55,360 nucleotides of DNA from Syntrophales bacterium (GTDB lineage Bacteria; Desulfobacterota; Syntrophia; Syntrophales; JACQWR01), in the NCBI GenBank assembly GCA_035283845.1, contig DATESZ010000264.1, positions 1-55,360 on the forward strand, given 5' to 3'. The notes under the pieces are model-generated. The model worked only from the letters and a program-made list of their open reading frames with translations, was not told where the DNA came from and searched no databases. Below are positions 1-20,188 of the stretch, piece by piece. The position numbers and the translations under genes are program-made. Numbering within the stretch: the first letter of the stretch is position 1; each line of letters starts with the position of its first letter.

Positions 1-141
1 CTATCCGCATACTTCCTCCTCTCCATTCAAAAATTATGCCACGTGCTAGGCAGAATTATCATATCTCAATATCACTAATTATGCCTATTGCGCTGTTGAA
101 CTCCACAAAAGACATGGTTCCTGCTTCATCCGCCGGCATTA
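1..141. repeat. Terminal direct repeat copy 1 (= 55220..55360); assembly overlap of a circular or circularly permuted genome
   Basis: nt 1-141 (ctatccgcatacttcc...catccgccggcatta) recur verbatim as the last 141 nt of the window. Confidence 0.95.
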
Positions 142-300
142 AAACACCACACGTCCGCAGGCTCTTTCCGAGGTTCCCCCGGTGGCTGAAATCAAGTTCT
201 GTTTCTGTAATCCGAATTTAAGGATATTCTGCGCTGCAAGATGGTCTCTGTCATGGGCTGCCCCGCACGTCTCACATGTCCACACGCGGTCAGATAGCGT
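95..300 (-). ncRNA. Candidate TnpB guide RNA (omega/reRNA) scaffold overlapping the tnpB 3' end
   Basis: Inference only. In characterised TnpB elements the RNA overlaps the 3' end of tnpB and stops at the element right end. Here the minus-strand sequence ...GTGGAGTTCAAC ends at nt 95. The 5' limit cannot be set by eye. Confidence 0.3.
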
Positions 301-1302
301 CAGCCGAGCATTCACCTTGCCACAGGTACACATACGGCTTGAAGGCTCAAAACGGCCTATCTCCAGATAGTTCTTGCCACTGTCTGCAAGTTTATACTGG
401 AGCATCCGGTAGAAATCTCCAAGCCCTAAATCAGAAATGCTCTGAGCAAGGCAGTGATTCTTCACCATGCCCTTGATGAAAAGGTCTTCACACACAACCG
501 TATCGAAGCGGTTGACTATCCCGCTTGTCGTCTTGTGTAAGAAATCCTTTCTCTGGTTTGCCACATGTTCATGATACCGCGCAAGTTTCAATACGGCTTT
601 GCGTCTATTGCCACTTCCTTTCACCTTCCGGCTTGCCCTACGCTGTAAAACCTTCAGCCTTCCGAGTGCCTGCTTCAGGTGCTTCGGATTTTCTATCTCC
701 GTTCCATCTGAAAGAACGGCAAACGTCTTGATGCCTGTGTCAATCCCGACCGCCGTTGCCTTGCGGATCGCCTTCTGCTTTGCCTTCTTGTCTTCTGCCT
801 CAACGGCAATACTCACGAAGAACTTGCCTGTTGCCGTCTTCTTAATCACTGCTGTCTTTATTGTTCCCTCGAATGTCCGGCTTATTCGTGTCGGTATCCA
901 TCCGAGCTTAGGAGCAAAGACCCTATTTTCATCAAACTTGACCTTTACATTTTGCGGAAAACCTACAGTATGCCGTTTGTCATGCTTGCGCTTGAACTTT
1001 GGGAATCCGTGCTTTTCCCTAAAGAAACGAGTGAAGGCTTTTTCCATATTCACAATAGACTGTTGGAGGCTCTGAGCAACAGACAGATTCAGCCATTCAT
1101 ATTCAGGTTTCTTCTTTATCTGCGTTAATTCTGCCATCAACGTGAAGGCACTCATGGTTTTTTTATCCTTCTGGTACGCCTCAATCCTTCGGGCAAGAGA
1201 CCAGTTATACACCCATCGGGCATTACCGAGCATCTGTTCAAGCTGCCCTGCCTGATGCTGGTTCGGATAGATTCTGTATTCGTAACCACGTATTTTTACC
1301 AT
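139..1302 (-). CDS. tnpB: TnpB RNA-guided endonuclease (IS605 OrfB family), 387 aa
   Basis: ORF track. RuvC triad motifs VGIDTG, VCEDL and DRDHLAAQNI, with a CxxC...CxxC zinc finger (CTCGK..CETCG) between the last two. Confidence 0.93.
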   Translation of the reverse strand: MVKIRGYEYRIYPNQHQAGQLEQMLGNARWVYNWSLARRIEAYQKDKKTMSAFTLMAELTQIKKKPEYEWLNLSVAQSLQQSIVNMEKAFTRFFREKHGFPKFKRKHDKRHTVGFPQNVKVKFDENRVFAPKLGWIPTRISRTFEGTIKTAVIKKTATGKFFVSIAVEAEDKKAKQKAIRKATAVGIDTGIKTFAVLSDGTEIENPKHLKQALGRLKVLQRRASRKVKGSGNRRKAVLKLARYHEHVANQRKDFLHKTTSGIVNRFDTVVCEDLFIKGMVKNHCLAQSISDLGLGDFYRMLQYKLADSGKNYLEIGRFEPSSRMCTCGKVNARLTLSDRVWTCETCGAAHDRDHLAAQNILKFGLQKQNLISATGGTSERACGRVVF

Positions 1303-1310
1303 GTTTAGAA

Positions 1311-1338
1311 TTTATCATAGTTCTCCAGAGAATGTCAA
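1311..1338 (-). promoter_or_regulatory. Possible sigma70-like promoter in front of tnpB
   Basis: Minus strand TTGACA (1338..1333), 16 nt, GATAAA (1316..1311). The -10 is weak and would give a nearly leaderless tnpB mRNA. Confidence 0.25.
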
Positions 1339-1366
1339 GTCTTTTTAGAAAATAAATAAATATGGG

Positions 1367-1425
1367 GTTCAACAAAGGTTTCGAGCGGACGGGGTGAAGC
1401 TCCGCCGCTCAAACCGGCGTTATCC
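1367..1425 (+). repeat. attC-like folded repeat a (59 nt)
   Basis: GTTCAAC-AAA-GGTTT[C]GAGCGG[A]CGG-ggtgaagct-CCGCCGCTCAAACC-GGC-GTTATCC. The TTA of the right core is the stop of 1420..1599. Confidence 0.75.
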
Positions 1426-1599
1426 TAATATCAACTGCCGATGTTTCCACGCATCGTCGGCAAGCCCTTCGGCGTCCTCTACTGGTAATTTCCGCAACCT
1501 GTCATGTTGTCCGGTCTGACACGCGTCATCATAAATATTCGCCGCATAGGTAGCTAAAAATGTTACCGTAAAGTGTTCTTTAAATTCTTTTTCGTCCAT
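1420..1599 (-). CDS. Hypothetical cassette protein, 59 aa
   Basis: Internal ATG of ORF 1420..1776 preceded by GGGGGGAAG. The longer ORF-track start would read through repeat b. Confidence 0.6.
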   Translation of the reverse strand: MDEKEFKEHFTVTFLATYAANIYDDACQTGQHDRLRKLPVEDAEGLADDAWKHRQLILG

Positions 1600-1618
1600 A
1601 ATCTTCCCCCCATTAAAA

Positions 1619-1705
1619 GGATAACAATTAAATGAAGCGGAGCGGAAAGTCGCTCGTCGCGCCTCATTCTTGGGCTTTGGCCGCCCGCTTATTCCTGCGT
1701 TGTGT
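1619..1705 (+). repeat. attC-like folded repeat b (87 nt)
   Basis: GGATAAC-AATTA-AAT[G]AAGCGG[A]GCGG...CCGCCCGCTTATT-CCTGC-GTTGTGT. About 88% identical to repeat e. Confidence 0.75.
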
Positions 1706-1783
1706 AAAATAAAACCATAAACTGAAAGATGCCCACAAAGTGAAACAAAAAATCCCAGCACCAAGAAAGGCACCATAAAAAAG

Positions 1784-2227
1784 ATGACGGATACGATTGT
1801 TGGAGCACTTATCGGGGTCGGCAGTGCTATTCTCGGCGCGATTGTTGGAGCTTGGATCGGTTATCGACTCTCCATTTCTTTGGTTCATGTCACTACTCGA
1901 CACAATGCTGCGTCCAATTTGAGGAAAGCTTTCTATGACGAACTTGCCATCTTGAATATGAGCAGCCTTAAAGATATTGATGCCTGTTCTATGCTTGAGG
2001 GTGCTTTCAAGAAACATATGATCGCTTTTTGGGAACTCAAATCCACCTTGCCGAAAAGCAAATGCGTTGCTTTCACCCAGGCATGGGAAGAGTATTATTG
2101 TTATCCAGGAACAGGGGACCATCATCTTGAACAATACGACACACTTACTGGAGGCTCGGAACAGCGTAAGGGGAAAAGAACGCTTGCAATTAAACGGATT
2201 GAACATATTCTCTCCTTTACTGAATAA
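1784..2227 (+). CDS. Hypothetical membrane-anchored protein, 147 aa; the only plus-strand gene in the array
   Basis: ORF track. N-terminal hydrophobic helix (IVGALIGVGSAILGAIVGAWIG). More protein-like than the antisense ORF 1664..2245. No clear SD. Confidence 0.5.
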   Translation: MTDTIVGALIGVGSAILGAIVGAWIGYRLSISLVHVTTRHNAASNLRKAFYDELAILNMSSLKDIDACSMLEGAFKKHMIAFWELKSTLPKSKCVAFTQAWEEYYCYPGTGDHHLEQYDTLTGGSEQRKGKRTLAIKRIEHILSFTE

Positions 2228-2239
2228 ATGAAAAAGACC

Positions 2240-2298
2240 ACACAACCAAGCACTACAGCGGACAGGCTGATCGCCTGCCGCTGACCTTTGCGTTATGT
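2240..2298 (+). repeat. attC-like folded repeat c (59 nt)
   Basis: ACACAAC-CAAGC-ACT[A]CAGCGG[A]CAGGC-tgatc-GCCTGCCGCTGACC-TTTGC-GTTATGT. The right core holds the stop of 2293..2496. Confidence 0.8.
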
Positions 2299-2496
2299 TT
2301 CAAAATCCTTCAAAGTCATATGTCCCTGGCATACAAAAACAATGACAGAGAAGAAACAACATTCCCAATACGTGGGTTGGAGTATGGCAAAACGAGCGGG
2401 TACGTTCCATAAATAGTAATAACCAAACCACAATAATCCGCCCGTGGCTGCCCACCAGAAAATACAGTACAAAGCAAATGCAAAATATTTTAACAT
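2293..2496 (-). CDS. Hypothetical small membrane protein, 67 aa
   Basis: ORF track. Two hydrophobic segments rich in W/Y/F. The start codon is the CAT of the left core of repeat d. Confidence 0.5.
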   Translation of the reverse strand: MLKYFAFALYCIFWWAATGGLLWFGYYYLWNVPARFAILQPTYWECCFFSVIVFVCQGHMTLKDFET

Positions 2497-2580
2497 AACA
2501 AGCTCACTGAACCCGACCGGAATTACGTCCGGTGCGTTTCAGCCAAATCCGTGGCCAGCGGGTTATCTCTGGCGTTATCT
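2493..2580 (+). repeat. attC-like folded repeat d (88 nt)
   Basis: ACATAAC...AACCCG-ACCGGaattacgtCCGGT...CGGGTT-ATCTCTGGC-GTTATCT. The central ~60 nt are identical to repeat g. Confidence 0.7.
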
Positions 2581-2581
2581 A

Positions 2582-2788
2582 TCACTCAAGTACCCGATAG
2601 TTTTTAAGTGGAATCCATCGGCCCTTGTCCTCGATCATACACCCACCGAAAAAAGTCCATTCATGTTGTTTCCCTATACGGCTTGCCTGGCCATCGCATT
2701 CCATTTTTCCCGCGATAGGGATTAGTGCAAGAATTGCAAGAATTGCGACCGCTATGACCACTTCGATAATTGTAAATCCTTTCATCAT
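2582..2788 (-). CDS. Prepilin-type N-terminal domain protein (pilin/pseudopilin-like), 68 aa
   Basis: MMKGFTIIEVVIAVAILAILA matches the G-F-T-L-I-E prepilin cleavage/methylation motif plus a hydrophobic helix. AAGGAG SD lies before the ATG at 2788. Confidence 0.7.
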   Translation of the reverse strand: MMKGFTIIEVVIAVAILAILALIPIAGKMECDGQASRIGKQHEWTFFGGCMIEDKGRWIPLKNYRVLE

Positions 2789-2809
2789 CCGTCTCCTTTT
2801 AAATTTAAA

Positions 2810-3283
<474 letters not shown>

Positions 3284-3302
3284 CTAACTCCTTAAAATAA
3301 AA

Positions 3303-3362
3303 GCATAACAATTAGTTGCAGCGGACAGGCTAATCGCCGCGCCGCTGACCTTTGCGTTAGCT
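3303..3362 (+). repeat. attC-like folded repeat f (60 nt)
   Basis: GCATAAC-AATTA-GTT[G]CAGCGG[A]CAGGC...CCGCTGACC-TTTGC-GTTAGCT. The right core holds the stop of 3357..3545. Confidence 0.8.
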
Positions 3363-3545
3363 TCCGTAGCATCTTTTCCTTGGCCCTTTGCATCCCATAC
3401 ACGGGTTCTCTCCCTTATTTACAAGTCCCATCACAATCATTCCACCCAATAAACACGTTTTGGGAACGTACCCTTGTCCGATTGCCATTTGCAGATTAAT
3501 ATCGTCGCTGTCTGCTTCTATTTGACTAAAATAATGTGGTTTCAT
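3357..3545 (-). CDS. Hypothetical cassette protein, 62 aa
   Basis: Internal ATG of ORF 3357..3575 preceded by AGGAGAG. Confidence 0.55.
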   Translation of the reverse strand: MKPHYFSQIEADSDDINLQMAIGQGYVPKTCLLGGMIVMGLVNKGENPCMGCKGPRKRCYGS

Positions 3546-3566
3546 TCGATCTCTCCTTTCAAAAAT

Positions 3567-3649
3567 AAAGAACAATTCAACCCCGACCGGAATTACGTCC
3601 GGTGCGTTTCAGCCAAATCCGTGGCCAGCGGGTTATCTCTGCGTTATAT
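3567..3649 (+). repeat. attC-like folded repeat g (83 nt)
   Basis: AAAGAAC-AATTC-AAC[C]CCG-ACCGGaattacgtCCGGT...CGGGTT-ATCTCTGC-GTTATAT. Confidence 0.75.
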
Positions 3650-3654
3650 CCCGA

Positions 3655-3873
3655 TCATTTAAAGTACCGCAAGAAGCAATCGTAGCAGCATTCCTTGTCT
3701 TCATAAATACCATCAAGGCCAAGAATTACATGTTTACCGCACTTGAAGCACTTCCCCGTTAGTGGCAACGGTTCCGTCCCGACATTTGAGAACATTGCAT
3801 TAAAGTGGTCGGATATTCTTAACCTTTCTGCCTTTCCTACTTCCGACTCTTCCCATTGTCCTTGTGTTGGCAT
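3655..3873 (-). CDS. Hypothetical zinc-ribbon protein, 72 aa
   Basis: ORF track. CFKCGKH...CCYDCF cysteine pairs. AGGAGG SD. Confidence 0.6.
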   Translation of the reverse strand: MPTQGQWEESEVGKAERLRISDHFNAMFSNVGTEPLPLTGKCFKCGKHVILGLDGIYEDKECCYDCFLRYFK

Positions 3874-3896
3874 ATTGAATTCCTCCTAAAATACTG

Positions 3897-3982
3897 ATTT
3901 AACCAGTCACTACAGCGAACGGGGATCACACGCTGCGGCTTCCATCATGCCCGTGGCCCCGCCGCTGACCTTAGCGTTAGCA
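3897..3982 (+). repeat. attC-like folded repeat h (86 nt)
   Basis: ATTTAAC-CAGTC-ACT[A]CAGCGa[A]CGGGG...CCCCGCCGCTGACC-TTAGC-GTTAGCA. The left core fits RYYYAAC exactly. The right core holds the stop of 3977..4219. Confidence 0.8.
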
Positions 3983-4219
3983 TTTAGGACATGAAACTCG
4001 TTTGTTGTACGTTTGCCAGCCCATAAATGTCTTGATGCTTTGCCAAGGGTGATGTTCTAATTTCTTAATAAGTTCCACATTACATCTTTGGCATTTAGTA
4101 TGAAAATTAAGGCCATCATAAAAACATTCACCAACAATATGACCAAGGGAAAAACATAAAAGAATGCTAACAATTTTATCCAGCGGACGGGTAATTTCGT
4201 CCTGTGGTTTTTCATTCAT
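3977..4219 (-). CDS. Hypothetical Cys-rich protein, 80 aa, with a repeat-encoded N-terminal leader
   Basis: ORF track. The only start codon and SD (GGAGG) lie inside repeat i. The first 17 codons (MNEKPQDEITRPLDKIV) are shared with 10081..10608. Confidence 0.5.
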   Translation of the reverse strand: MNEKPQDEITRPLDKIVSILLCFSLGHIVGECFYDGLNFHTKCQRCNVELIKKLEHHPWQSIKTFMGWQTYNKRVSCPKC

Positions 4220-4254
4220 GTTCTACCTCCCCGCCGATGATAACGGCGTTATAT
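4165..4254 (+). repeat. attC-like folded repeat i (90 nt)
   Basis: TGCTAAC-AATTT-TAT[C]CAGCGG[A]CGGG...CCCGCCGATGATA-ACGGC-GTTATAT. nt 4168..4224 are identical to 10557..10613 in repeat o. Confidence 0.75.
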
Positions 4255-4497
4255 TCTGATACACCTTACTGCCGTCTCCTGCCCCAACGGGAACTCAAAG
4301 CACGATGACCACTTAGTGCAGCATCTCCTCGTATGCGGAACTGAATGTAGACATGTGTATCCCGCCATTTTGAAACATTTGTCAGCGTTGATACACCTTA
4401 CATCGGGCTTTAGTTTAAACCTCCTCCCTTTTTTTATTACAACGGCTTCCCCGATTTCTCCTTTTTCACCCGCAACATAATTCCTGATATTCCCCAT
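4249..4497 (-). CDS. Hypothetical cassette protein, 82 aa
   Basis: Internal ATG of ORF 4249..4557 preceded by GGAGGGG. The stop lies in the right core of repeat i. Confidence 0.5.
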   Translation of the reverse strand: MGNIRNYVAGEKGEIGEAVVIKKGRRFKLKPDVRCINADKCFKMAGYTCLHSVPHTRRCCTKWSSCFEFPLGQETAVRCIRI

Positions 4498-4513
4498 AAC
4501 CCCTCCAAAAACC

Positions 4514-4599
4514 AGATGACAATTAAATGAAGGCGACGGGAAGTTACTCCGTCGCATTCAGACACGCTCACCGTCCCGCGCCTTATTACTGCGTTAGCA
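4514..4599 (+). repeat. attC-like folded repeat j (86 nt)
   Basis: AGATGAC-AATTA-AAT[G]AAGGCG[A]CGGGA...TCCCGCGCCTTATT-ACTGC-GTTAGCA. Same plan as b and e, with compensatory changes. Confidence 0.75.
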
Positions 4600-4953
4600 T
4601 CACCACTTGATTAATAAACCCCAAAATTCCGACTCGTGCGTCTTTTCAAACCACACTCCCATATTTGCAAAACAAGAAAACCCATCTGCGTGGGCCAGCG
4701 TTTCTTGTTCTTCTGCCGTGAGCCATCTTCCTGCCAGGCATACGCCTCTCCAGTTAAGCGTGATCTCCTGCACTGATTTACAAACGCACTCTCCGATTTT
4801 ACGACACGCCTTCGTTCTGAGGCCGGTATAGAGGTAGAGTTTATCCCCCGGTTTTGGGTTCCTCCCGTCCCGCCGTTTCGCCCGGATCGTTTGTGTTTTT
4901 AACCCGGCTTCAACCAATGGCGCAAATTGCTTTTTAAATCCTAATAATGGCAT
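4600..4953 (-). CDS. ASCH-domain-like protein, 117 aa
   Basis: ORF track. N-terminal GFKKQFAPLVEAGLKTQTIR...PGDKLYLY resembles the ASCH beta-barrel signature (from memory). G-rich SD. Confidence 0.55.
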   Translation of the reverse strand: MPLLGFKKQFAPLVEAGLKTQTIRAKRRDGRNPKPGDKLYLYTGLRTKACRKIGECVCKSVQEITLNWRGVCLAGRWLTAEEQETLAHADGFSCFANMGVWFEKTHESEFWGLLIKW

Positions 4954-4983
4954 CTCTCCCCCCTATGCAAAAGATAATAAAAA

Positions 4984-5046
4984 TGCTAACAAATCGCTCC
5001 AGCGGAGTGCCAAAGGACCGGCACCCGCTGACCTTTGGCGTTATGA
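4984..5046 (+). repeat. attC-like folded repeat k (63 nt)
   Basis: TGCTAAC-AAATC-GCT[C]CAGCGG[A]GTGCC-aaaggacc-GGCACCCGCTGACC-TTTGGC-GTTATGA. The right core holds the stop of 5041..5208. Confidence 0.8.
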
Positions 5047-5208
5047 TTCATCATCTAATGGACAATCCCCCGGCATACAACAGGCATGCTGCCTCTGTAT
5101 ATCCCCTCTCACCAAGAGCAAGCTGCATTCCCCATCAAGATTCTGCCGGGAGGGAAGAAAACAAGGGCACATGCCGCAACTTGTTATTTTATCAGGCAAC
5201 TTTTTCAT
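5041..5208 (-). CDS. Hypothetical Cys-rich miniprotein, 55 aa (below ORF-track cutoff)
   Basis: Hand translation: MKKLPDKITSCGMCPCFLPSRQNLDGECSLLLVRGDIQRQHACCMPGDCPLDDES. GGAGGAG SD 3 nt before the ATG at 5208. Confidence 0.45.
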   Translation of the reverse strand: MKKLPDKITSCGMCPCFLPSRQNLDGECSLLLVRGDIQRQHACCMPGDCPLDDES

Positions 5209-5227
5209 AACTCCTCCATAAATAAAG

Positions 5228-5287
5228 ACATAACAATGAAATCAAGGCGACGGATTTTACTCCGCCTGCTCTTTCGCTGATTCCTGA
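5228..5287 (+). repeat. Degenerate attC-like repeat l (left half only)
   Basis: ACATAAC-AATGA-AATCAAGGCGACGGA...CGCTGATT. No GTTA right core before the exonuclease gene. Confidence 0.4.
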
Positions 5288-5309
5288 TACAGGTGGCTAT
5301 AAAACGCTC

Positions 5310-5939
5310 TCAGGAAGTCATCATTTTTTCGTAAATTGCCATTGTCGTTTTGATGTCTCTCAAACAGTGGTTATCTATCGCCTCGTAGTCCCCCATTAAC
5401 CAGAGTTGGTAAATCTCCGATCCATTGCCGCCGCCGTGCTGAACGCCCAAGAAATCAGCACACGAGGCCAAAGAAACATAGTCTTTAAAATCTGCCGCCC
5501 AGACCTTCATCAAGTCCGTCGTTAGATGCGGGTTGCCCCTCGGTATGGCGTTCCTTATTCCCGTGAGGCCATATTTTATGGCTTTTCTCCATATCCACGG
5601 CATGTCAAACGTGATGATATTCCATCCCACCAAGTGCAGCGGTTCATGCCATGCGCCTGCTATTTTATCAAAAGCCCCGGCTAAAAGCTCCATCGTTTCC
5701 CGTTCGTTTGCCCCTCGGATGATTTGGGCTTCCCCGCCTTCAAGGCAGAGGCCAACACAGAAGATTTCCCCCTTCATGCTGTTAAGGCTCTGCTTTTGGT
5801 ATTCATTCTCGACATTGGCTTCTTGATATGCCCTGATGGTTTCCGGCTTGGACATTGTGCCGGGAGCTTTTATATCTTCAGGGAGTGGCCTGGTCGGGCC
5901 GGGGGTAGATTCTATGTCCAGGAATAATTTTGGTATCAT
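5310..5939 (-). CDS. DnaQ-like 3'-5' exonuclease (PolB-exonuclease-related family), 209 aa
   Basis: ORF track. LFLDIESTP Exo I motif. Start overlaps the ERF stop (ATGA). Confidence 0.7.
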   Translation of the reverse strand: MIPKLFLDIESTPGPTRPLPEDIKAPGTMSKPETIRAYQEANVENEYQKQSLNSMKGEIFCVGLCLEGGEAQIIRGANERETMELLAGAFDKIAGAWHEPLHLVGWNIITFDMPWIWRKAIKYGLTGIRNAIPRGNPHLTTDLMKVWAADFKDYVSLASCADFLGVQHGGGNGSEIYQLWLMGDYEAIDNHCLRDIKTTMAIYEKMMTS

Positions 5940-6676
5940 GGTTGACCTCCGATATTATCCGGGACATCCTGCGGTTCTACGATGGTGATCGACACAAGAT
6001 TGTTTCCGTATTGACCTTTGACAAACGCGACCTTGACGGGAACGATATTTGCCGCCGCGCCGGATGCAATGAGGCTTAGGTCTTTCTTGAAAGTCTGATA
6101 AATATTCCCGTCTTCGTCTGTTATCCCGTACTTGACATACGGTTTACCCTTGTTCGCTCCGGCGGTTGACACCCCCGGCTTTTCCTCTACTGACTTGATG
6201 TAAACGGTTTTGGTTTCCTCGTTTCCGGCAAGGGCTGTTTTTTCGGCAGGCGGCTTTGTCGTTTTATTGTCGCCCACTCCTGCGCTCGCCGCGTTTCCGT
6301 CATCATCCTCCGGTGCTATTCCCACAATGGATTGTAGAGAATAACGCCGCAGGTAGGTTATGCAGCTTCCGATGGCCTGCGGGTCGCTTTTAACCGGCCT
6401 TGCCACAAGCCGCCCTCGCATCCACTCGCCGGAAGAATGGCAAAGCGTAGTATCTATGCAGACCATCTCCGGGTGTTCTGGTAGGAAATCTGCCGTTTGC
6501 ACAACGCTTAGTCCGTTGTTGGCAAGCGGCTTCCGGCACGCATCCCATACAGACGCAAGGTCGGCGTAGGAGCTTTTAAAGAAGGGGTTTTGGCTATCCT
6601 TTACGGCCCCCTCCATTATCCCCTGTGCTTTCGCCAGGGCGTCTGCTAATTTCCCTATTGTCTCTGATTGGCTCAT
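5936..6676 (-). CDS. ERF-family single-strand annealing recombinase, 246 aa
   Basis: Internal ATG with AAGGAG SD. IGKLADALAKAQ...NPFFKSSYADLASVWDACR is the remembered ERF N-terminal signature. Confidence 0.8.
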   Translation of the reverse strand: MSQSETIGKLADALAKAQGIMEGAVKDSQNPFFKSSYADLASVWDACRKPLANNGLSVVQTADFLPEHPEMVCIDTTLCHSSGEWMRGRLVARPVKSDPQAIGSCITYLRRYSLQSIVGIAPEDDDGNAASAGVGDNKTTKPPAEKTALAGNEETKTVYIKSVEEKPGVSTAGANKGKPYVKYGITDEDGNIYQTFKKDLSLIASGAAANIVPVKVAFVKGQYGNNLVSITIVEPQDVPDNIGGQP

Positions 6677-6713
6677 CGAAAAAACTCCTTGCTGATTTTG
6701 TAGGCACCTTCTT

Positions 6714-7040
6714 TCATAATTTATTCCCCGCAAAGGCATTTAGTATTGATCTCATCGGTTCTGTCACATGGGCGTTTAATTTTCCCGGCTCCTCTCCCGC
6801 TTCCCACGGCTCGGAAGTGAGGCACATGAAGTTTACCCCGGCCGCTAAGATTTCGTACCGCGTGGGCCACGCCTCATCGTGGAAGGTTTTTCTGCAATCT
6901 CCCCGAGAAAACAGGCGGAACAATGCCTCGCTATCTAGGTGGATACTGAAGCTGCTCACCCCAATACACCCCTCGGCGTGCAGCTCCGCATATTTTTTCG
7001 TTAACTCCAATGCCTTCGATATAAACTCTTGTTTTCCCAT
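6714..7040 (-). CDS. Hypothetical protein, 108 aa
   Basis: ORF track. Contains the 34-nt segment (6789..6822, LTSEPWEAGEE) duplicated at 9757..9790. Confidence 0.6.
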   Translation of the reverse strand: MGKQEFISKALELTKKYAELHAEGCIGVSSFSIHLDSEALFRLFSRGDCRKTFHDEAWPTRYEILAAGVNFMCLTSEPWEAGEEPGKLNAHVTEPMRSILNAFAGNKL

Positions 7041-7060
7041 TTTCCGCCTCCCTCGTTAAA

Positions 7061-7748
7061 TTATTCCCCCGCCTTTGAGTAGTCGCTCAACAACAAGCTC
7101 GGCTGGAATGGCTTGCTCAGATGGGCGCCCTTTTTTAAATTATCTATTGCCCACAGTGGTTGTAAATTCTTTAGCGCCCACGCCCGCCTGAAATCTAAGT
7201 CATCCGGTGTCTCGAAGTTGAAGGCAGACAGCGGGATCTTATGATCAATATGCCATTCTCCCCTGTTTTCCCAAGTCATACCCGGCTTGAACTTCTTTGC
7301 CAGGTGCTTCATTAATTGATCTAAGGTAAAATCCACTAGCGACTCCCAGCGCCGACCGTTTTTGCTCCCGTCAAGCGATTCCCAGATAGAGCGGCGCATC
7401 CCTTCGTTAAGACTCCCTTTCGGGGTTGGCATTGGCCCATGCTTGGCAGCGTCCCCTGTGCGCTTCGGGGTTACGACTGTAGTATTCTTTGTGTCTTGCC
7501 AGGGTAATGTCGCGATTTTGCGTATAATATTTTTTGCGATGCCGACTCGCGGCGGCCGCGTGGTTTTTCCAGTAAACCCTTGACCAGATATTTATGCAAT
7601 CCTTGCATCTATTGCCGCTCCATGAGTAAAAATCACAGATTTTCTTTGTCCCTTTGCATTTTGAGCATCTTTTTTCTATCCCAATAGAAGGACTTGCATT
7701 TAGGACACCTTCGCACGTCTGAGCTTCTAGCAACCCACTCATGATCAC
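7061..7748 (-). pseudogene. HNH endonuclease split by a frameshift (ORFs 7407..7748 and 7061..7432)
   Basis: The N-terminal Cys-rich, Y/N-repeat part and the C-terminal WHIDHKIP...NLQPLWAIDNLKKG HNH part lie in different frames and overlap by 26 nt. In related phage HNH genes (from memory) these form one protein. Confidence 0.65.
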
Positions 7749-7816
7749 ACCTCTTGCATATGATTTTGGTAATTTTGATTTTCATGGGTTATATGTATGC
7801 TCCATAAGTAAGATTG

Positions 7817-8101
7817 TCAAGAGTTATTATAGTCGCATCCGTGAGCGGCGATCCCCTTTTCCTTCCGCCCCATCACCATGCAGTCTTCGGGGTGATATTC
7901 TGAGCGTTCCAGCTCGGCGCTCTGGCTGTCCAGTTTAAGCTCTTGCGAGTGGAAGAAATCGCCCGCAAAAACGATCAGATCAACGGCTTCCGCCTCTGCC
8001 GTTTCAACGATAAAGTTCAGGCACTTTTCGCATTCCTTAATATCTTTGTCCCGTAGGTGGGCGTCGGCAAAATGGAGTAGCTTCATGATATTATTACCCA
8101 C
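7817..8101 (-). pseudogene. Truncated calcineurin-like/SbcD-type metallophosphoesterase fused to a duplicated 25-aa tail
   Basis: MKLLHFADAHL and GDFFH motifs only. Homology ends after ~60 aa and continues into ERSEYHPEDCMVMGRKEKGIAAHGC, which is shared with 10081..10608. Confidence 0.55.
7835..7910. repeat. 76-bp dispersed direct repeat, copy 1 (copy 2 at 10105..10180)
   Basis: gcatccgtgagcggcgatcccc...ggggtgatattc[t/g]gagcgttcc, 75/76 identical. Confidence 0.9.
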
Positions 8102-8340
8102 CCTTCCTTTAACCCGTAAACAGGGCCTCTAAGAATGTAGTTTATGGGCATGTGCCAGATGTACCCCGTATATTCAAGAGGGGCTCCGGCTTTCATTTCC
8201 TCGCCGCTATATTTCGTCTCTTCGAGCTGTAGGTCATCCCCCACCTTAAAGCCTCTATCATCAAAGCGTATTTCAAACCGCTTGCCCATATCTGCCGTTG
8301 CCCGGAAGGCTTCTGTATCTGTCTTTAATATGTGTTTCAT
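8083..8340 (-). CDS. DUF3850/ASCH-like protein, 85 aa
   Basis: MKHILKTDTEAFRA...KRFEIRFDDRGFKVGD...YILRG...GLKEGWVIIS matches the remembered DUF3850 pattern. GGAGGTG SD. Confidence 0.7.
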   Translation of the reverse strand: MKHILKTDTEAFRATADMGKRFEIRFDDRGFKVGDDLQLEETKYSGEEMKAGAPLEYTGYIWHMPINYILRGPVYGLKEGWVIIS

Positions 8341-8344
8341 GGCT

Positions 8345-8932
8345 TCACCTCCACCCTTCTGCTCGGTTTCCAGGGATAAAAAATAACTCCCAAAAGGCCG
8401 TAAGTCTGATCTTCTCGTAATCGGCCCTGGCGGGCTTCTCGATCTTCTCGTAATCGGCCCTGGCAGGATTCTCGATCTTCTCGTAATCGGCCCTGGCAGG
8501 ATTCCTGATCTTCTCGTAATCGGCCCTGGCAGGATTCTCGATCTTCTCGTAATCGGCCCTGGCAGGATTCTCGATCTTCTCGTAATCGGCCCAGGCGGAC
8601 TTCCTGATCTTCTCGTAATCGGCCAAGGCGGAGGGAGATAAAAGCCCAAGCGGAATCCCCATCAGATAAAACTTTCCTGTCTTTATCGCCTCGGCAATCA
8701 CCACGGGAAATTTGCTAGGGGAAGAAAAATCTGTGCACTCTTTTTTCACCCCCTTGCCGTCCAACTCATAAAAGAAATCAATCGCTCCGTGTCCGACAAA
8801 ATCATCGGGCGTGGTGTGCTGCTGTAATTTTTTCCCTCGTTTAGAATTATAAATATCGTCATAGGTGAGGAAAAGGATTTCTGTGGCGCCGTCTGTTCGT
8901 CGCACCTCTTTCCAGCTGATAAATACGCACAT
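8345..8932 (-). CDS. Hypothetical protein with C-terminal ADYEKIENPAR tandem repeats, 195 aa
   Basis: ORF track. GGAGGG SD. About seven 11-aa repeats. Confidence 0.6.
   Translation of the reverse strand: MCVFISWKEVRRTDGATEILFLTYDDIYNSKRGKKLQQHTTPDDFVGHGAIDFFYELDGKGVKKECTDFSSPSKFPVVIAEAIKTGKFYLMGIPLGLLSPSALADYEKIRKSAWADYEKIENPARADYEKIENPARADYEKIRNPARADYEKIENPARADYEKIEKPARADYEKIRLTAFWELFFIPGNRAEGWR
8408..8630. repeat. 33-bp tandem repeat, ~6.7 copies
   Basis: Unit gatcttctcgtaatcggccctggcaggattctc starts at 8408, 8441, 8474, 8507, 8540, 8573 and 8606. Confidence 0.9.
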
Positions 8933-8935
8933 GGC

Positions 8936-9271
8936 TCATCCCTCCATAGCAAAAGGGACGTCCTGCCCGCCCGCAATGTCCTGGACGCGGAAAGGCTCCC
9001 CGGTTGATGTCCTAATCATCCCCTCAACGCTTGCCATCATGCGGCCGGATACGTTAGGGTCGCGCACAATCTGAGCGGGAAGCCAGTCCACCTTTGCCGC
9101 CTGAGCAAGCCGGTCGAGCCCTTGCTTGTGGATTCTTACCGGCTCCACGATCAGGGCGAACCCCGGCGCGATATCCGCGGGGCTGGTTCCCGTGGGGATG
9201 AGCATATGGCAGCCCTTGGACTCAAACTCCTTTAACCTCTGGTACGCTGTTTTCTGTGATTGATCTGTCAT
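8936..9271 (-). CDS. Hypothetical protein, 111 aa
   Basis: ORF track. GGGAGG SD. Confidence 0.65.
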   Translation of the reverse strand: MTDQSQKTAYQRLKEFESKGCHMLIPTGTSPADIAPGFALIVEPVRIHKQGLDRLAQAAKVDWLPAQIVRDPNVSGRMMASVEGMIRTSTGEPFRVQDIAGGQDVPFAMEG

Positions 9272-9273
9272 GA

Positions 9274-9426
9274 TAATAACCTCCCACCGGTTAGGTTGGG
9301 GAAGGCCCCGCTGCCTGCCCTAGAGCAGACAACGGGTGGGGATGGCCTTCCGTATTAGTCTTTGCGATCTCCCATTAACCGCGCTGGTCTTATGTAATGC
9401 CGCGTGCGGCATATCTCTCGTTATCT
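9274..9426 (+). repeat. Long composite attC-like repeat m (~153 nt)
   Basis: TAATAAC...CGGTTA/TAACCG, GGAAGGCC/GGCCTTCC and ATGCCGC/GCGGCAT stems...ATCTCTC-GTTATCT. The right core holds the stop of 9421..9573. Confidence 0.5.
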
Positions 9427-9573
9427 ACCATTACAAACGGATTCTTTCTGGGGACGTATTTTTAGAAGACGATCCACTGCTTCTGGTGTTAGGTACACTT
9501 CCTCCCCACTACAATCATAACATCCATCGAACTCGATATGTAAGTCTCCGTCTAAATCCCATTCTATTTTCAT
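9421..9573 (-). CDS. Hypothetical cassette protein, 50 aa
   Basis: Internal ATG of ORF 9421..9621 with GAGGA 8 nt upstream. Confidence 0.45.
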   Translation of the reverse strand: MKIEWDLDGDLHIEFDGCYDCSGEEVYLTPEAVDRLLKIRPQKESVCNGR

Positions 9574-9603
9574 GTTCTCATCCTCAAATCTCCTAAAATA
9601 ACA

Positions 9604-9669
9604 AGATAACAAAGCGCTCAAGACGGACGTGGCATACAGCCGCCACGCCGCTTAGATTGAGCGTTCCCT
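9604..9669 (+). repeat. attC-like folded repeat n (66 nt)
   Basis: AGATAAC-AAAGC-GCTCAAgaCGG[A]CGTGGC-atacagcc-GCCACGCCGcttagaTTGAGC-GTTCCCT. Confidence 0.65.
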
Positions 9670-9744
9670 ACCACCAATAACCAAATGCTCCGTTATTCCT
9701 ATATGCAACTTCGCGCCCTCCGCCGTTTCATGCGCTCTTCTAAA

Positions 9745-9921
9745 CTAAACATGGGTCTCCTCTCCCGCTTCCCACGGCTCGGAAGTGAGGAACGCCCGGA
9801 CGCCATCGATAAGCTCGTCCAAGTTGTTCGTGCTGATAACATTGGTATGGCCCGAATAGGCGTTGTACCTGCCGAAATTGTTATCCCGGCCCCCGTCGCT
9901 TATGGTTAGATTTTTAGTCAT
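9745..9921 (-). CDS. Hypothetical protein, 58 aa
   Basis: Internal ATG overlapping the stop of 9914..10081 (ATGACTAA). The C-terminus carries the duplicated LTSEPWEAGEE segment. Confidence 0.5.
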   Translation of the reverse strand: MTKNLTISDGGRDNNFGRYNAYSGHTNVISTNNLDELIDGVRAFLTSEPWEAGEETHV

Positions 9922-10081
9922 GGGTTTTCCCCAGCTTTTTAGTGGGCAACCTGCCCTTTCCGTCAATCTTACATTTGGGACATTTGCGCCGCCGTATTGC
10001 ATGCATGAGCGGATACTCTTCGCGACAAGCATAATTTCGGCACCGTACCCACTTTATATCAAAACAAGACACATACCACAT
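9914..10081 (-). CDS. Hypothetical zinc-ribbon protein, 55 aa
   Basis: Internal ATG overlapping the stop of 10081..10608 (TAATG). CRNYAC...CPKC. Confidence 0.5.
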   Translation of the reverse strand: MWYVSCFDIKWVRCRNYACREEYPLMHAIRRRKCPKCKIDGKGRLPTKKLGKTHD

Positions 10082-10608
10082 TATTCCCCTACCTCCTTGT
10101 ACTGGCATCCGTGAGCGGCGATCCCCTTTTCCTTCCGCCCCATCACCATGCAGTCTTCGGGGTGATATTCGGAGCGTTCCGGTTCGTAGTCATTCGCCCA
10201 CTTAAACGGTATTTCGTGTAGCTCTTTACCGCAATAACAGCAGAACCCCATGCCATTTTCAGAGGGTGTCCCCTCGATTATGCAATGGAGTTGACCGCAT
10301 TCTGTTGACCAGCTCCCCTCTTCGTCCGCTGTCCAGGAGCACCCCTGCCCCGGCCTATTTTCACCCATTTTAACCAGAGGTTCCTCTGTGTACTCTTTTT
10401 TTACGTAAAGCATGCCTGTCTTGTGATCTTCAATACACCAAGACTTTTTTGCTATATGCTTAGCTATTATCATTAAGGTTCTGATGTTATTGCTCACCCC
10501 CTGCCAGTGCCAATAAACAGAGTATGGCCCCTTGGTACGAAGCGAATAACGGGGCATAACAATTTTATCCAGCGGACGGGTAATTTCGTCCTGTGGTTTT
10601 TCATTCAT
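10081..10608 (-). CDS. Hypothetical protein, 175 aa, with a repeat-encoded leader and the duplicated C-terminal tail
   Basis: The ATG at 10608 with GGAAGGAAG SD lies inside repeat o. An alternative ATG lies in the GTTATG core (MPRYSL...). Confidence 0.55.
   Translation of the reverse strand: MNEKPQDEITRPLDKIVMPRYSLRTKGPYSVYWHWQGVSNNIRTLMIIAKHIAKKSWCIEDHKTGMLYVKKEYTEEPLVKMGENRPGQGCSWTADEEGSWSTECGQLHCIIEGTPSENGMGFCCYCGKELHEIPFKWANDYEPERSEYHPEDCMVMGRKEKGIAAHGCQYKEVGE
10105..10180. repeat. 76-bp dispersed direct repeat, copy 2
   Basis: 75/76 identical to 7835..7910. Confidence 0.9.
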
Positions 10609-10643
10609 GTTCTTCCTTCCCGCCGCTGACCTTTGCGTTATAT
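10554..10643 (+). repeat. attC-like folded repeat o (90 nt)
   Basis: GCATAAC-AATTT-TAT[C]CAGCGG[A]CGGG...CCCGCCGCTGACC-TTTGC-GTTATAT. Confidence 0.8.
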
Positions 10644-10858
10644 TACTGATGACCATCTAAACCTTCGTTCCAAGTATTAACCCCAGGATTTTCTACATCT
10701 CCGTTATTTCTTATATCGGCAAATGACCAATCTTCATCCCCGTCGACGTGTAGGGAAAAAGAAATTTCACCGTCTTTTGGTAATTCAGGATGATTGGTTT
10801 CCCGAAGTATTTTTTGGACTGCATCAGCTATTTCTCGTTTTTGTCTTACTGAAAACAT
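10643..10858 (-). CDS. Hypothetical acidic protein, 71 aa
   Basis: ORF track. GGGAGGTG SD. Confidence 0.65.
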   Translation of the reverse strand: MFSVRQKREIADAVQKILRETNHPELPKDGEISFSLHVDGDEDWSFADIRNNGDVENPGVNTWNEGLDGHQ

Positions 10859-10879
10859 GCGCCACCTCCCTTATAAAAA

Positions 10880-10942
10880 ATATAACCAGTCACTAAAGCG
10901 GCGTGAGGCTGTTTGCCACGCCGCTTACCTTGGGCGTTATGT
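10880..10942 (+). repeat. attC-like folded repeat p (63 nt)
   Basis: ATATAAC-CAGTC-ACT[A]AAGCGGCGTG-aggctgtttgc-CACGCCGCTTACC-TTGGGC-GTTATGT. Confidence 0.8.
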
Positions 10943-10953
10943 GACAAAATCCC

Positions 10954-11112
10954 TCACTCATATTCAGTGCAATCATGGTTCTCGTGTTTCGCGCAATATT
11001 CACAAAAACCTTCGCGCCCGCAAATATCGCAAGTGCTTGTGTCATCCGAGCCATCAGGGTTTTTTATCTGCTCGCAACATACATGACAAAAACCTCTATC
11101 TTCGTCTCTCAT
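10954..11112 (-). CDS. Hypothetical Cys-rich miniprotein, 52 aa
   Basis: Internal ATG of ORF 10954..11136 with GAGGGA SD. CHVCC...CDICG...CEYC. Confidence 0.5.
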   Translation of the reverse strand: MRDEDRGFCHVCCEQIKNPDGSDDTSTCDICGREGFCEYCAKHENHDCTEYE

Positions 11113-11132
11113 ATTTCCCTCTATAAATAAAA

Positions 11133-11221
11133 GCATAACCAGTCACTGAACCCGCCCGGGGAATTCCGGTCTGGGTTTTCCGTCAAGGCTTAGGCCCCGG
11201 CGGGTTATCTCTACGTTATAT
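11133..11221 (+). repeat. attC-like folded repeat q (89 nt)
   Basis: GCATAAC-CAGTC-ACTG-AACCCGCC[C]GGGG...CCCCGGCGGGTT-ATCTCTAC-GTTATAT. Confidence 0.75.
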
Positions 11222-11458
11222 TTAAAATTCATCAACCAGTTCATCAAATGGGCGTCCCGTGCGTATTGCTTCGGCGGATAGGTGGAGAAAAACGCGTGGG
11301 CTAAATTTACGAACCTTTTCATATCTTTCATTGCCCTTACGGATATCGTGCAGAACCATATAATCTAACGCCTTCAGGTGGTCAGCGTGGAGGACAACCG
11401 CATCGTCACGGTGTAGTTCCCATGCCTCGTATGTTTTAGCATTATATGGGTTACTCAT
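11222..11458 (-). CDS. Hypothetical protein, 78 aa
   Basis: ORF track. GGAGGA SD. Preferred over the overlapping ORF 11143..11331. Confidence 0.65.
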   Translation of the reverse strand: MSNPYNAKTYEAWELHRDDAVVLHADHLKALDYMVLHDIRKGNERYEKVRKFSPRVFLHLSAEAIRTGRPFDELVDEF

Positions 11459-11534
11459 TCCAGTCCTCCATTAAAAGAATAAGATCATCTTTTGTATATG
11501 GTTGTTTTTTACTTGGTTTTCTCCAAAAAACAGA

Positions 11535-11583
11535 AAACAACTTAATCCAGCCCGTGGCCCGGCGGGTTATCCTTGCGCTATAC
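11535..11583 (+). repeat. Short attC-like repeat r (49 nt)
   Basis: AAACAAC-TTAAT-CC-AGCCCG-tggcccgg-CGGGTT-ATCCTTGC-GCTATAC. The GCTA variant of the right core supplies the TAG stop of 11578..11763. Confidence 0.5.
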
Positions 11584-11763
11584 AGCACAAAATAAAATAC
11601 AATCCTTAGCGTCGGATTGGCTAATCTCTATCAATCCATACGATCCATCACCCTCGTCAAGCCACCCTTCACCTGAGCAAATAAAAATCCTCTGATCGCG
11701 GGTTTTAACGGCCTCATATTCCGTTCGATGTTTACAATCGCTGCATTTTGGTGTGGTTTTCAT
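11578..11763 (-). CDS. Hypothetical Cys-containing protein, 61 aa
   Basis: Internal ATG overlapping the stop of 11760..11918 (ATGA). Confidence 0.55.
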   Translation of the reverse strand: MKTTPKCSDCKHRTEYEAVKTRDQRIFICSGEGWLDEGDGSYGLIEISQSDAKDCILFCAV

Positions 11764-11918
11764 TTTCTCGTCCCCGGCATCTTGATCCAAACGATCTCTT
11801 CAAGGCAGTCGCAGCTCCCCTGCTGCCAGCGCCACAACGGCACGAGGAAGCCTGGCGTGTGCATCAGCGGTAATGTCTCTTTTTTCCTGCCTACCCACTC
11901 GATAAATTGTTTCAACAT
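11760..11918 (-). CDS. Hypothetical protein, 52 aa (first gene of the early-left operon)
   Basis: Internal ATG of ORF 11760..12098 with AGGGGGG SD. The upstream part of that ORF reads through repeat-like leader sequence. Confidence 0.45.
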   Translation of the reverse strand: MLKQFIEWVGRKKETLPLMHTPGFLVPLWRWQQGSCDCLEEIVWIKMPGTRK

Positions 11919-12065
11919 TTTGACCCCCCTAATTGCTTTTTGCCCACCTACCGCGTCCCGAAGGCACATTGCCCAGGTGAGCTCATCTGCCGACTGCTCG
12001 GCTACCCTTCCGTTTCCCGTAGGATCGGTTGGGCGGGTGTTACTTTTGTCTCTTTTGTGACTGCT

Positions 12066-12090
12066 CCGCCAGCTTATCCGCACGTTATAC
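12066..12090 (+). repeat. Right-half attC-like sequence s in the early-left leader
   Basis: CCGCCAGCTT-ATCCGCAC-GTTATAC resembles the right arms of d, g and q. No convincing left arm found. Confidence 0.3.
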
Positions 12091-12106
12091 TTTTTCATTC
12101 GTCCGC

Positions 12107-12135
12107 ATCATACACCCGTCAAATGTGTTTGTCAA
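12107..12135 (-). promoter_or_regulatory. Early-left promoter (PL-like)
   Basis: Minus strand TTGACA (12135..12130), 17 nt, TATGAT (12112..12107). Confidence 0.6.
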
Positions 12136-12177
12136 GCATTATTTTCATTTTATTATTGCTAATCGTAAAAATAATAA

Positions 12178-12205
12178 TTGACATATATATTGACTTGTGT
12201 ATAAT
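12178..12205 (+). promoter_or_regulatory. Early-right promoter (PR-like)
   Basis: TTGACA (12178..12183), 16 nt, TATAAT (12200..12205), 30 nt upstream of the HTH gene. Confidence 0.65.
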
Positions 12206-12235
12206 GGGCATAACTGGAAGAAAGGAGGAGTGAAT

Positions 12236-12442: not shown

Positions 12443-12454
12443 TCGGGTGGCGTT

Positions 12455-19591: not shown

Positions 19592-20188
19592 ATGACCAAG
19601 CATCAGCAATCGCTTAACCACCCCCAGAAGGGGTCTCGGATAACCGTTGACCCTATTAGAAGTCTCGAAGACATAAACGAGATCAAGCTGCTACTGAGGA
19701 ATGATCCGCTTTATCTTTGTCTTTTCACTCTAGGGATAAACACAGGATTGCGTGCTTCGGACTTACTCCATATTACGGCGGGGCAGGTCAAGGATTTATC
19801 CCCGATGGACGAGTTGTGTTTGAACAAGCGTAAGACCGGCAATGGTCGGAGGATGAATTTAAACTCGGCCTGTGTTGATGCGATACATTCTCTTTTGGCT
19901 AGCAGGGGGTATCTTGACGAAGAAGTCTTGTTTATTGGGCAGCGGGGGCCGTTGACTGTTTCGTCTGTGAATCGGTTGTGGAAAAGGTGGGCGAGGCAAT
20001 GTGGGATTCGGGGGAACTTCGGCAGTCATTCTGCCAGAAAGACTTTTGGCTATCATCAGCGCGCGACCTTTGGGGTGTGCCTGCCCGAGCTGATGCGGGT
20101 GTTTGGGCATTCAAGTGAACGGCAAACCCTTGCCTACATAGGCATCCAGGATGAGACGATAAAGAACATTTACGCAAACACACTATAA
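19592..20188 (+). CDS. Tyrosine recombinase, catalytic domain only, 198 aa
   Basis: ATG with GGAG SD. Catalytic motifs TGLRASDL (R), HSARKTF (HxxR), VFGHSS (H) and LAYIG (Y). No N-terminal core-binding domain of normal length. Confidence 0.85.
   Translation: MTKHQQSLNHPQKGSRITVDPIRSLEDINEIKLLLRNDPLYLCLFTLGINTGLRASDLLHITAGQVKDLSPMDELCLNKRKTGNGRRMNLNSACVDAIHSLLASRGYLDEEVLFIGQRGPLTVSSVNRLWKRWARQCGIRGNFGSHSARKTFGYHQRATFGVCLPELMRVFGHSSERQTLAYIGIQDETIKNIYANTL

Follow-up and report, generated by a model that had tools for sequence, protein, structure and literature searches.

Integron-type attC repeats in an uncultivated phage may carry the translation start of the genes behind them

The DNA analysed here (the window: all 55,360 nucleotides of contig DATESZ010000264.1, from the Syntrophales bacterium assembly GCA_035283845.1) looks like the complete genome, of about 55 kb, of an uncultivated phage. 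Fifteen hairpin repeats lie between its early genes and resemble the attC recombination sites of integrons. Two of them, repeats i and o, contain a start codon and 16 further codons that continue in frame into two unrelated open reading frames (ORFs), and the same leader heads other unrelated proteins in metagenomes. We consider it probable, on balance, that this leader is a gene cassette's own translation start, lying within its own 5' attC, and not a landing pad for inserted genes.

The features of the two copies are as follows. R1 is a covariance model built solely from 18 phage repeats, and L1 denotes the leader-bearing subfamily of hairpins; the motif positions and leaders were read from the sequence.

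4166..4253, minus strand: repeat i, an L1-type attC-like hairpin (R1 73.2 bits, E 1.6e-17)
4251-4248 and 4171-4168, minus strand: 5' core TAAC and 3' core GTTA of repeat i
4226..4230, minus strand: Shine-Dalgarno (SD) sequence GGAGG of copy i, 6 nt 5' of the leader ATG, at the junction of L-box stem and loop
4169..4219, minus strand: leader of copy i, ATG plus 16 codons (MNEKPQDEITRPLDKIV)
3977..4219, minus strand: fused ORF of 80 amino acids (aa); the body has a zinc-ribbon-like CQRC...CPKC and lacks a start codon of its own
4249..4557, minus strand: upstream ORF of 102 aa; its stop TAA (4251-4249) is the TAA of the repeat i 5' core
10555..10642, minus strand: repeat o, an L1-type attC-like hairpin, hybrid with a GCAAAGGTCAGCGG-type 5' arm (R1 81.4 bits, E 9e-20)
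10613..10618, minus strand: SD-like AAGGAA of copy o, weaker than that of copy i
10558..10608, minus strand: leader of copy o, identical to that of copy i
10081..10608, minus strand: fused ORF, 175 aa long; the leader ATG is also the start chosen by the JGI gene caller in locus L180

The original prediction for this DNA had pointed to 57 identical nt (4168-4224 = 10557-10613) and to a minus-strand SD, ATG and 17-codon leader opening both ORFs, and all of this is read directly in the sequence. The identity comprises the loop and 3' arm of the L1 hairpin; its 56-nt core has exactly two exact matches in the window, with none expected from 100 shuffles, and the two repeats are 91% identical over their full 88 nt. 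In copy i the minus strand reads GGAGG-TAGAAC-ATG, then the remaining leader codons, through GTT-A into ORF 3977-4219, the leader covering the loop, the 3' L box (CCCGtCCGCTG), the spacer and the GTT of the core. The leader ATG is, as had been claimed, the only full-length start of this ORF: the other in-frame start-like codons are a GTG at codon 48 and an ATG at codon 66, so that a full-length 80-aa product is possible from the leader ATG alone. The stop TAA of the 80-aa ORF lies within the TAAC core of the next repeat, and a database protein (P0002) is 99% identical to its product. Copy o reads AAGGAA-GAAC-ATG and the same leader, through GTT-A into ORF 10081-10608. Here the GTTA core (10560-10557) is followed by TG, which makes codon 18 the alternative ATG already described; a further in-frame ATG at 10656 had been left out. 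The leader stretch NEKPQDEITRPLDKIV is the segment by which leader-containing N-terminal peptides would be recognised. A look-up of the upstream 102-aa protein found no record. Separately, the second ATG of the leader's ATGAATG opens a +1 frame through the repeat into the cassette (4057-4215 on the minus strand of the window, 4114-4359 in the metagenome contig L084), with a product of 52 aa in the window, hydrophobic and membrane-like, and of 81 aa in L084; this may be coincidence.

The repeats belong with integron attC sites, as the original prediction held, on the strength of their pairing and core conservation and of the cross-detection of canonical sites by R1. They read, on the minus strand, xTAACGC - spacer - CAGCGGCGGG - loop - CCCGtCCGCTG - spacer - GTTAT. 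Among the 18 modelled repeats the inverted AAC and GTT cores are invariant or nearly so, the lower stem is kept by sequence, and 92.9% of cells are paired, a level that none of 500 shuffles reached. The upper stem, or L box, is a 10-bp helix maintained by pairing and not by sequence (95.6% paired, compensatory changes at 8 of 10 pairs, 0/500 shuffles and no slid control close). On the coding strand, the 3' arm has a conserved bulged T that sits 6 bp above the spacer; a second extrahelical base, G, occurs inconsistently. Spacers measure 8-9 nt (canonically 5-6), loops 5-39 nt and whole repeats 53-88 nt (attC sites in general, about 57-141 nt). The window contains 15 R1 matches, which all lie between 1368 and 11220 on the minus strand; 12 leader-bearing metagenome loci contain 60, in a single orientation, and unrelated viral loci totalling 1.65 Mb contain none. 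Although phage repeats alone went into it, the model detects all five canonical class 1 attC sites in pFBAOT6 and R46 (L183, L184) at 50.6 to 27.9 bits: attC-aadA2 of pFBAOT6 (50.6 bits) and attC-aadA1, attC-orfD and both attC-oxa2 of R46. Nothing else in these 26 kb has E<1, and the best E is about 1e-11. Eighty loci of ERF recombinase relatives (883 kb) hold no attC-like repeats; the arrays are lineage-specific. DNA and RNA folds of single copies have unremarkable z-scores and are uninformative on SD accessibility.

R1 represents the coding strand of the phage, and where it matches canonical attCs the genes aadA, oxa2 and orfD lie on the other strand: the phage coding strand is the canonical attC bottom strand, and attC stands 5' of its gene. 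Extrahelical bases opposite the AAC triplet define the recombinogenic bottom strand, on which canonical crossover falls between AA and C, at the 5' end of the repeat (PMC5027507); the bulged T opposite the AAC triplet of the phage repeats agrees with this assignment. The arrays thus depart from the canonical layout of a top-strand gene with attC at its 3' end. A natural indel defines the unit. Contigs L086 and L085 are 100% identical except for a 552-nt block in L086, inserted exactly after a TAA, which starts with C-GCCAAGGTCAGCGG (an attC), continues with an untranslated region (UTR) and a 139-aa gene and ends in ...GGGATAA. Because of the polarity test and these borders, a cassette is attC first and gene second; together with the crossover between AA and C, they make a leader-bearing attC and the ORF behind it one mobile unit. 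At repeat i the border between TAA and C would fall between 4249 and 4248. The earlier remark that cores themselves supply stops and starts also stood: in six or seven of the 15 window copies the long ORF upstream ends at the TAA within the 5' TAAC core, and ORF 2293-2496 begins at a GTTATG core, without an SD.

Some related arrays (L084 2387-4163, L086 842-2172, L096, L098) combine attC-like sites of one orientation with some cassette genes on the other strand; both gene/attC polarities coexist there, the other-strand genes having the canonical one. Elsewhere, in two contigs that are 98.6% identical, the same gene lies behind a complete attC (L085 9392-9500) and a truncated one of a different type (L087 1-100). 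We rejected this pair as a clean cassette event because the break lies in the UTR and not at the core. Homology between L085 and L093 and between L091 and L092 was likewise rejected as proof that attC moves with its downstream gene, all L1 sites being alike anyway.

A search of relatives for the same leader on other ORFs, proposed at the outset as a check, returned 12 distinct DNA contexts and 30 proteins. Nucleotide contigs were searched with a wobble-degenerate leader pattern, and proteins first with three joined copies of the leader and then with a profile, run against 1.84 billion representatives. Only the repeat, of about 86 nt, is common to the window and to L083 and L084, two contigs from Hainich groundwater, in both of which the leader runs in frame into new ORFs. 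The 28 database proteins and the two window ORFs all begin with the leader or a close variant and have about 26 unrelated bodies. Among the DNA contexts the leader shows 0-4 substitutions per 52 nt, and the sequence is unrelated right after GTTA. The junction residue is Met, from a GTTATG core, in 12 of the 30 proteins and S, I, K, R or V in the other 18; in many bodies a CxxC motif starts 1-8 residues past the leader. Leader patterns gave no matches in IMG/VR or GTDB genomes and were present only in ENA, Logan and NCBI metagenome assemblies. A sister family, L2, has a different leader, MNKxxTSDIPAPLDCLV (MNK[NK]xTSDIPAPLDCLV), whose ATG matches that of L1 in position (-48) and frame (L091 4593-4680, L093 975-1061, L084 2776-2863). 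In L091 an MT-A70 methyltransferase, with its DPPW motif nine residues beyond the core, has no possible start other than the L2 leader.

The pattern of conservation suggests translation from the leader ATG. When the 12 copies are compared, the SD has a nucleotide diversity of 0.13 and the spacer that separates it from the ATG one of 0.455; the value is 0.06 both for the part of the leader that lies in the loop and for the 3' arm, and 0.71 just past GTTA. GGAGG or GGGAG is kept in 11 of the 12 distinct copies at a spacing of 5-6 nt (once 8). Motif and spacing are thus fixed while the spacer sequence is free to vary, as expected of a working initiation region. The loop is normally the most variable part of an attC site, yet in L1 the diversity of the loop is about one seventh of that of the adjacent spacer. 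By leader codon position, diversity is 0.061, 0.042 and 0.093. The non-leader sites among the 71 repeats have their own SD and ATG 15-40 nt past the core, whereas in 12 of 12 distinct contexts the L1 sites are fused directly to a body with no translation initiation region (TIR) of its own. The bodies are genuine genes, since the ratio of nonsynonymous to synonymous differences (pN/pS) is 0.17 and 0.26 in two homologous pairs.

We therefore favour a scheme in which a cassette would consist of a C, an attC, in most cases a UTR, and a gene closing in TAA, with crossover between TAA and C. Most cassettes have a short UTR with GGAGG and ATG 3' of the 3' core. L1 cassettes dispense with the UTR: their attC loop contains the GGAGG, a spacer of 5-6 nt, the ATG and 16 sense codons, which run through L box, spacer and GTT core directly into the body. 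The recombination site would then provide a ribosome-binding site and a start codon and lengthen the N-terminus by 17 residues. The peptide is probably a tolerated by-product whose sequence is irrelevant; what is retained is the SD and ATG, an open frame and the nucleotides of the attC. The bodies would at some time have been joined to the leader at the GTTA core. That L1 sites associate only with TIR-less bodies would follow from the leader attC and the gene forming one cassette.

Several observations weigh against this scheme. Leader pN and pS are both low and nearly equal (0.074/0.095 and 0.099/0.094); the constraint lies on nucleotides and not on the peptide, for which there is no detectable selection, and constraints on the attC sequence could in part account for the open frame. 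A core Met that might in principle serve as start is present in 12 of the 30 fused proteins, and the SD lies partly within the L-box stem. L2 sites have the ATG without GGAGG, and the L2 ORF at L084 2776-2863 ends after 33 codons beside an opposite-strand gene. Initiation at the leader ATG is read from sequence features, and the cassette border from one clean indel and the polarity argument. Neither an integron integrase nor an attI was found by Pfam and PHROG scans of 38 of the larger ORFs. Finally, the 1.3-kb contig L002 (ENA ERZ28564304 scaffold_90990) joins window positions 11309-10557 to 4260-3632 (100%, then 98.4% identity), that is, an o-type 5' arm and its upstream 71-aa gene to the 80-aa body. 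This fits a crossover 3' of the 5' arm. Homologous recombination, for which the phage encodes an ERF, or an assembly chimera is at least as likely, however: the 57-nt exact repeat contains the junction, and a further repeat forms the end of the contig. Such a join would delete 6389 bp, ERF and exonuclease included.

Mosaic attCs in the arrays also bear on crossover. One pair in the window (2512-2571 = 3582-3641) is 100% identical in 5' arm and loop and has different 3' ends, another (1612-1704 and 2803-2895) is 88% identical throughout, and copies o and L098 have hybrid 5' arms. These mosaics point to exchange inside the hairpins, which a crossover between AA and C does not explain.

The original prediction envisaged a site that drives whatever cassette lands behind it. 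Spelled out as a model, the leader site would belong to the upstream cassette, or be attI-like, with crossover between GTT and A, and a resident leader would translate any insert. Homology between copies does end exactly after GTTA in every context, L002 does join an o-type site and its upstream gene to the copy-i body, and the in-frame GTT-ATG design would suit any cassette starting TTATG. Nevertheless, we judge this model improbable, and this part of the prediction was not supported. The polarity test places the canonical crossover at the opposite end of the repeat, the L086 indel borders on TAA and not on the G before TT, no L1 copy precedes a UTR-type cassette, and the L002 join falls within an exact repeat, on a short contig that ends in another repeat. 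More than 50 assemblies of about 55 kb retain the window's arrangement.

We attach a similarly low probability to the leader being an annotation artefact, that is, an accidental open frame in conserved DNA that gene callers over-extend, with translation starting at the core ATG or elsewhere. The near-equality of leader pN and pS, the core Met of 12 bodies and the L2 sites without SD all fit this explanation; conservation is partly explained by attC constraints and an internal GGACG/CGTCC hairpin, and gene callers extend even to the ATG at 10656 (P0001). It accounts poorly, however, for the 18 bodies without a junction Met, in several of which a start at the next Met would remove the first CxxC or the DPPW, and for a GGAGG held 5-6 nt from the ATG across a freely varying spacer. 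The low diversity of the loop beside that spacer and the excess of variation at third codon positions also argue against it, and no SD lies 5' of the core ATG.

It is very unlikely that the repeats are RNA elements (RNase III sites, terminators or mRNA stabilisers) whose duplication spread the leader. They are intergenic on one long early transcript, terminator-like matches are enriched about twofold in the region, and the succession of lower stem, internal loop and upper stem is reminiscent of T7 RNase III sites. Against this stand the detection of canonical class 1 attC by R1 at E down to 1e-11, AAC and GTT cores kept by sequence and not by pairing, a single repeat orientation even where genes lie on the other strand, the precise cassette indel after TAA, the unremarkable fold energies and a scan of window 1-13000 that matched no Rfam family. 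Gene duplication, which would make the two window ORFs paralogues with a common N-terminus and which the identity of their first 17 codons might suggest, is refuted: BLASTP between the bodies gives no match at E<=10, nucleotide identity stops at GTTA, and the same leader heads about 26 unrelated bodies, so that the earlier claim of unrelated bodies held.

The array resembles a CALIN, an attC cluster without an integrase, because no integron integrase or attI was found in the ORFs scanned, and hence no complete integron with adjacent intI, attI and Pc promoter. The single tyrosine recombinase among the scanned ORFs lies about 8 kb from the array:

19592..20188, plus strand: Xer-like tyrosine recombinase of 198 aa, catalytic domain only, XerA-like (PF00589, E 7.9e-16)

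We rejected it as the likely cassette enzyme because no leader locus has a homologue and because there were no attC-like repeats within 10 kb of 59 homologues. Its homologues are common in IMG/VR contigs. An integron-type integrase would move the cassettes, and it is probably encoded by the host.

As a more tentative extension, the attC 5' of each cassette may act as an expression module, with L1 as a universal start-codon donor in a cassette system of reversed polarity. New cassettes might arise by in-frame joining of any coding fragment to GTT-A, and the recombinogenic strand might lie on the lagging-strand template of a leftward fork from about 12 kb, which would favour rapid turnover. A GC-skew switch and divergent promoters lie near this position. 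At 12107-12205, back-to-back sigma-70 promoters with 11/12 and 12/12 consensus matches coincide with the change in sign of the GC skew; the segment is probably the early control region and possibly a replication origin. One promoter there, identified by consensus match only, probably drives the leftward early transcript that bears the repeat arrays:

12107..12135, minus strand: sigma-70-type promoter, near-consensus (TTGACA-17-TATGAT)

The phage repeats share with integron attC sites and CALINs the imperfect palindromes, AAC...GTT cores, covarying L box, unpaired spacer, extrahelical T and variable loop, and with CALINs the arrays of a single orientation, in which each unit holds one small ORF and an integrase is not adjacent. 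They differ in having nearly all genes on the bottom-strand side with attC before the gene, spacers of 8-9 nt against 5-6, one subfamily with a conserved SD, ATG and leader, and as many as fifteen sites in a single 55-kb phage. CALINs have been reported in virulent phages in a few cases (Qi et al. 2023, PMC9892861).

In integrons, ORF-11, ORF-17 and ORF-18 of attI1 and short ORFs in attC assist TIR-deficient cassettes (Hanau-Bercot 2002, Jacquier 2009, reviewed in PMC8876359). The likeness to such short ORFs that the original prediction drew is only partial. As in those cases, an SD and ATG lie inside a recombination site, the frame crosses the core, and a gene without a TIR would be rescued. 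However, the known ORFs encode peptides of their own, which end at the core or close to it and work by termination and reinitiation, in a site upstream of a different cassette; the L1 leader has no stop, forms the N-terminus of the protein by in-frame fusion, is part of the same cassette as its gene, and is a conserved family common to about 26 unrelated genes. Two other repeats of the window (2811-2895 and 1620-1704) come closer to the ORF-11 design: in both, a frame opened by an ATG in the loop ends in the UTR, immediately ahead of an SD. Some resistance cassettes that are fused or lack a start, aacA4/aac(6')-Ib among them, use a start codon taken from upstream (PMC8876359; PMC4670013). They too obtain an N-terminus from outside the original gene, in variable fusions, but these are sporadic and usually follow the loss of attC, whereas L1 is a dedicated and conserved attC subfamily. 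Our literature search found no paper on a conserved leader-bearing attC family or on phage arrays of reversed polarity.

Two phage systems offer further parallels. PeSLs, promoter and stem-loop repeats reportedly described by Arbiol et al. in 2010, are said to be mobile regulatory cassettes that act through homologous recombination, and the internal proteins of T4-type phages are said (Repoila et al., 1994) to share a functional capsid-targeting leader that is cleaved by a protease. These systems share with ours their place in hyperplastic regions of phage genomes, repeated stem-loops that flank small novel ORFs and a short, conserved N-terminal leader on unrelated proteins. Unlike them, our repeat is attC-like and its leader peptide is without detectable selection.

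The other repeats of the array, with their R1 scores, are as follows.

11134..11220, minus strand: attC-like repeat (65.0 bits)
10881..10941, minus strand: attC-like repeat, short loop (46.7 bits)
9605..9668, minus strand: attC-like repeat (42.6 bits)
4985..5045, minus strand: attC-like repeat, short loop (49.6 bits)
4515..4598, minus strand: attC-like repeat, 3' core GTCA (69.4 bits)
3898..3981, minus strand: attC-like repeat directly 3' of the 80-aa ORF (66.0 bits)
3564..3648, minus strand: attC-like repeat, 5' arm and loop 100% identical to the 2494-2579 copy (71.2 bits)
3304..3361, minus strand: attC-like repeat, short loop (53.0 bits)
2811..2895, minus strand: attC-like repeat with a loop ATG at -42, in the same frame as the leader, whose ORF crosses the core and ends at a TAA in the UTR (82.3 bits)
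2494..2579, minus strand: attC-like repeat at whose GTTATG core ORF 2293-2496 begins (72.8 bits)
2241..2297, minus strand: attC-like repeat, short loop (54.3 bits)
1620..1704, minus strand: attC-like repeat, 88% identical to 2811-2895 (75.9 bits)
1368..1424, minus strand: attC-like repeat, last of the array, 5' of the TnpB gene (44.7 bits)

The fifteen sites form two blocks on either side of the ERF and exonuclease genes. Besides these, the phage genes of the window include a terminase, portal, major capsid protein, SU10-type adaptor, DnaD-like loader and IS605-type TnpB. Near-identical contigs of about 55.3-55.6 kb (about 99.9% identity) are present in more than 50 assemblies. The large terminase subunit (TerL) is at most 27% identical to that of any cultured phage, so that the phage has no cultured relative, and megablast of window 1-12500 against GenBank phages gave no match. 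The TnpB (OrfB) gene, at 139-1302 on the minus strand, occupies a cassette position 3' of the last attC-like repeat and has a promoter-like site of its own at 1338-1309. Within ORF 8345-8932 a 33-nt tandem repeat in about 7-9 copies (8373-8669) varies in copy number among genomes whose identity is otherwise 99.9%, and the product is accordingly 173, 195 or 239 aa long. The C-terminal 30 codons of the 175-aa leader-fused ORF (10097-10186) recur at 93% identity in ORF 7817-8101 (7827-7916), and a 37-nt stretch at 6789-6825 recurs at 97% identity at 9757-9793; both pairs are partial paralogues within the early arm. Among the late genes, an HNH endonuclease with an AP2 DNA-binding domain (49424-49990, plus strand) is a probable homing endonuclease.

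An integron cassette is usually seen as a promoterless gene with an expression-silent 3' recombination site, and, to our knowledge, attI1 and occasional short ORFs are the only known cases in which a recombination site helps with translation. Here an entire attC subfamily appears to be built as a translation start on about 26 unrelated genes, in phage arrays of reversed polarity. The small set of phage-borne attC arrays is enlarged by a 15-site example present in more than 50 assemblies. If the leader is translated, recombination sites would become selectable as expression modules, and a simple annotation rule would follow for many small phage ORFs that appear to be start-less. The leader would moreover offer a rare sequence-level handle on how new cassettes are assembled. 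In-frame joining to the GTT-A core, if true, would be a visible trace of cassette genesis, a step for which, as far as we know, integrons still offer no explanation.

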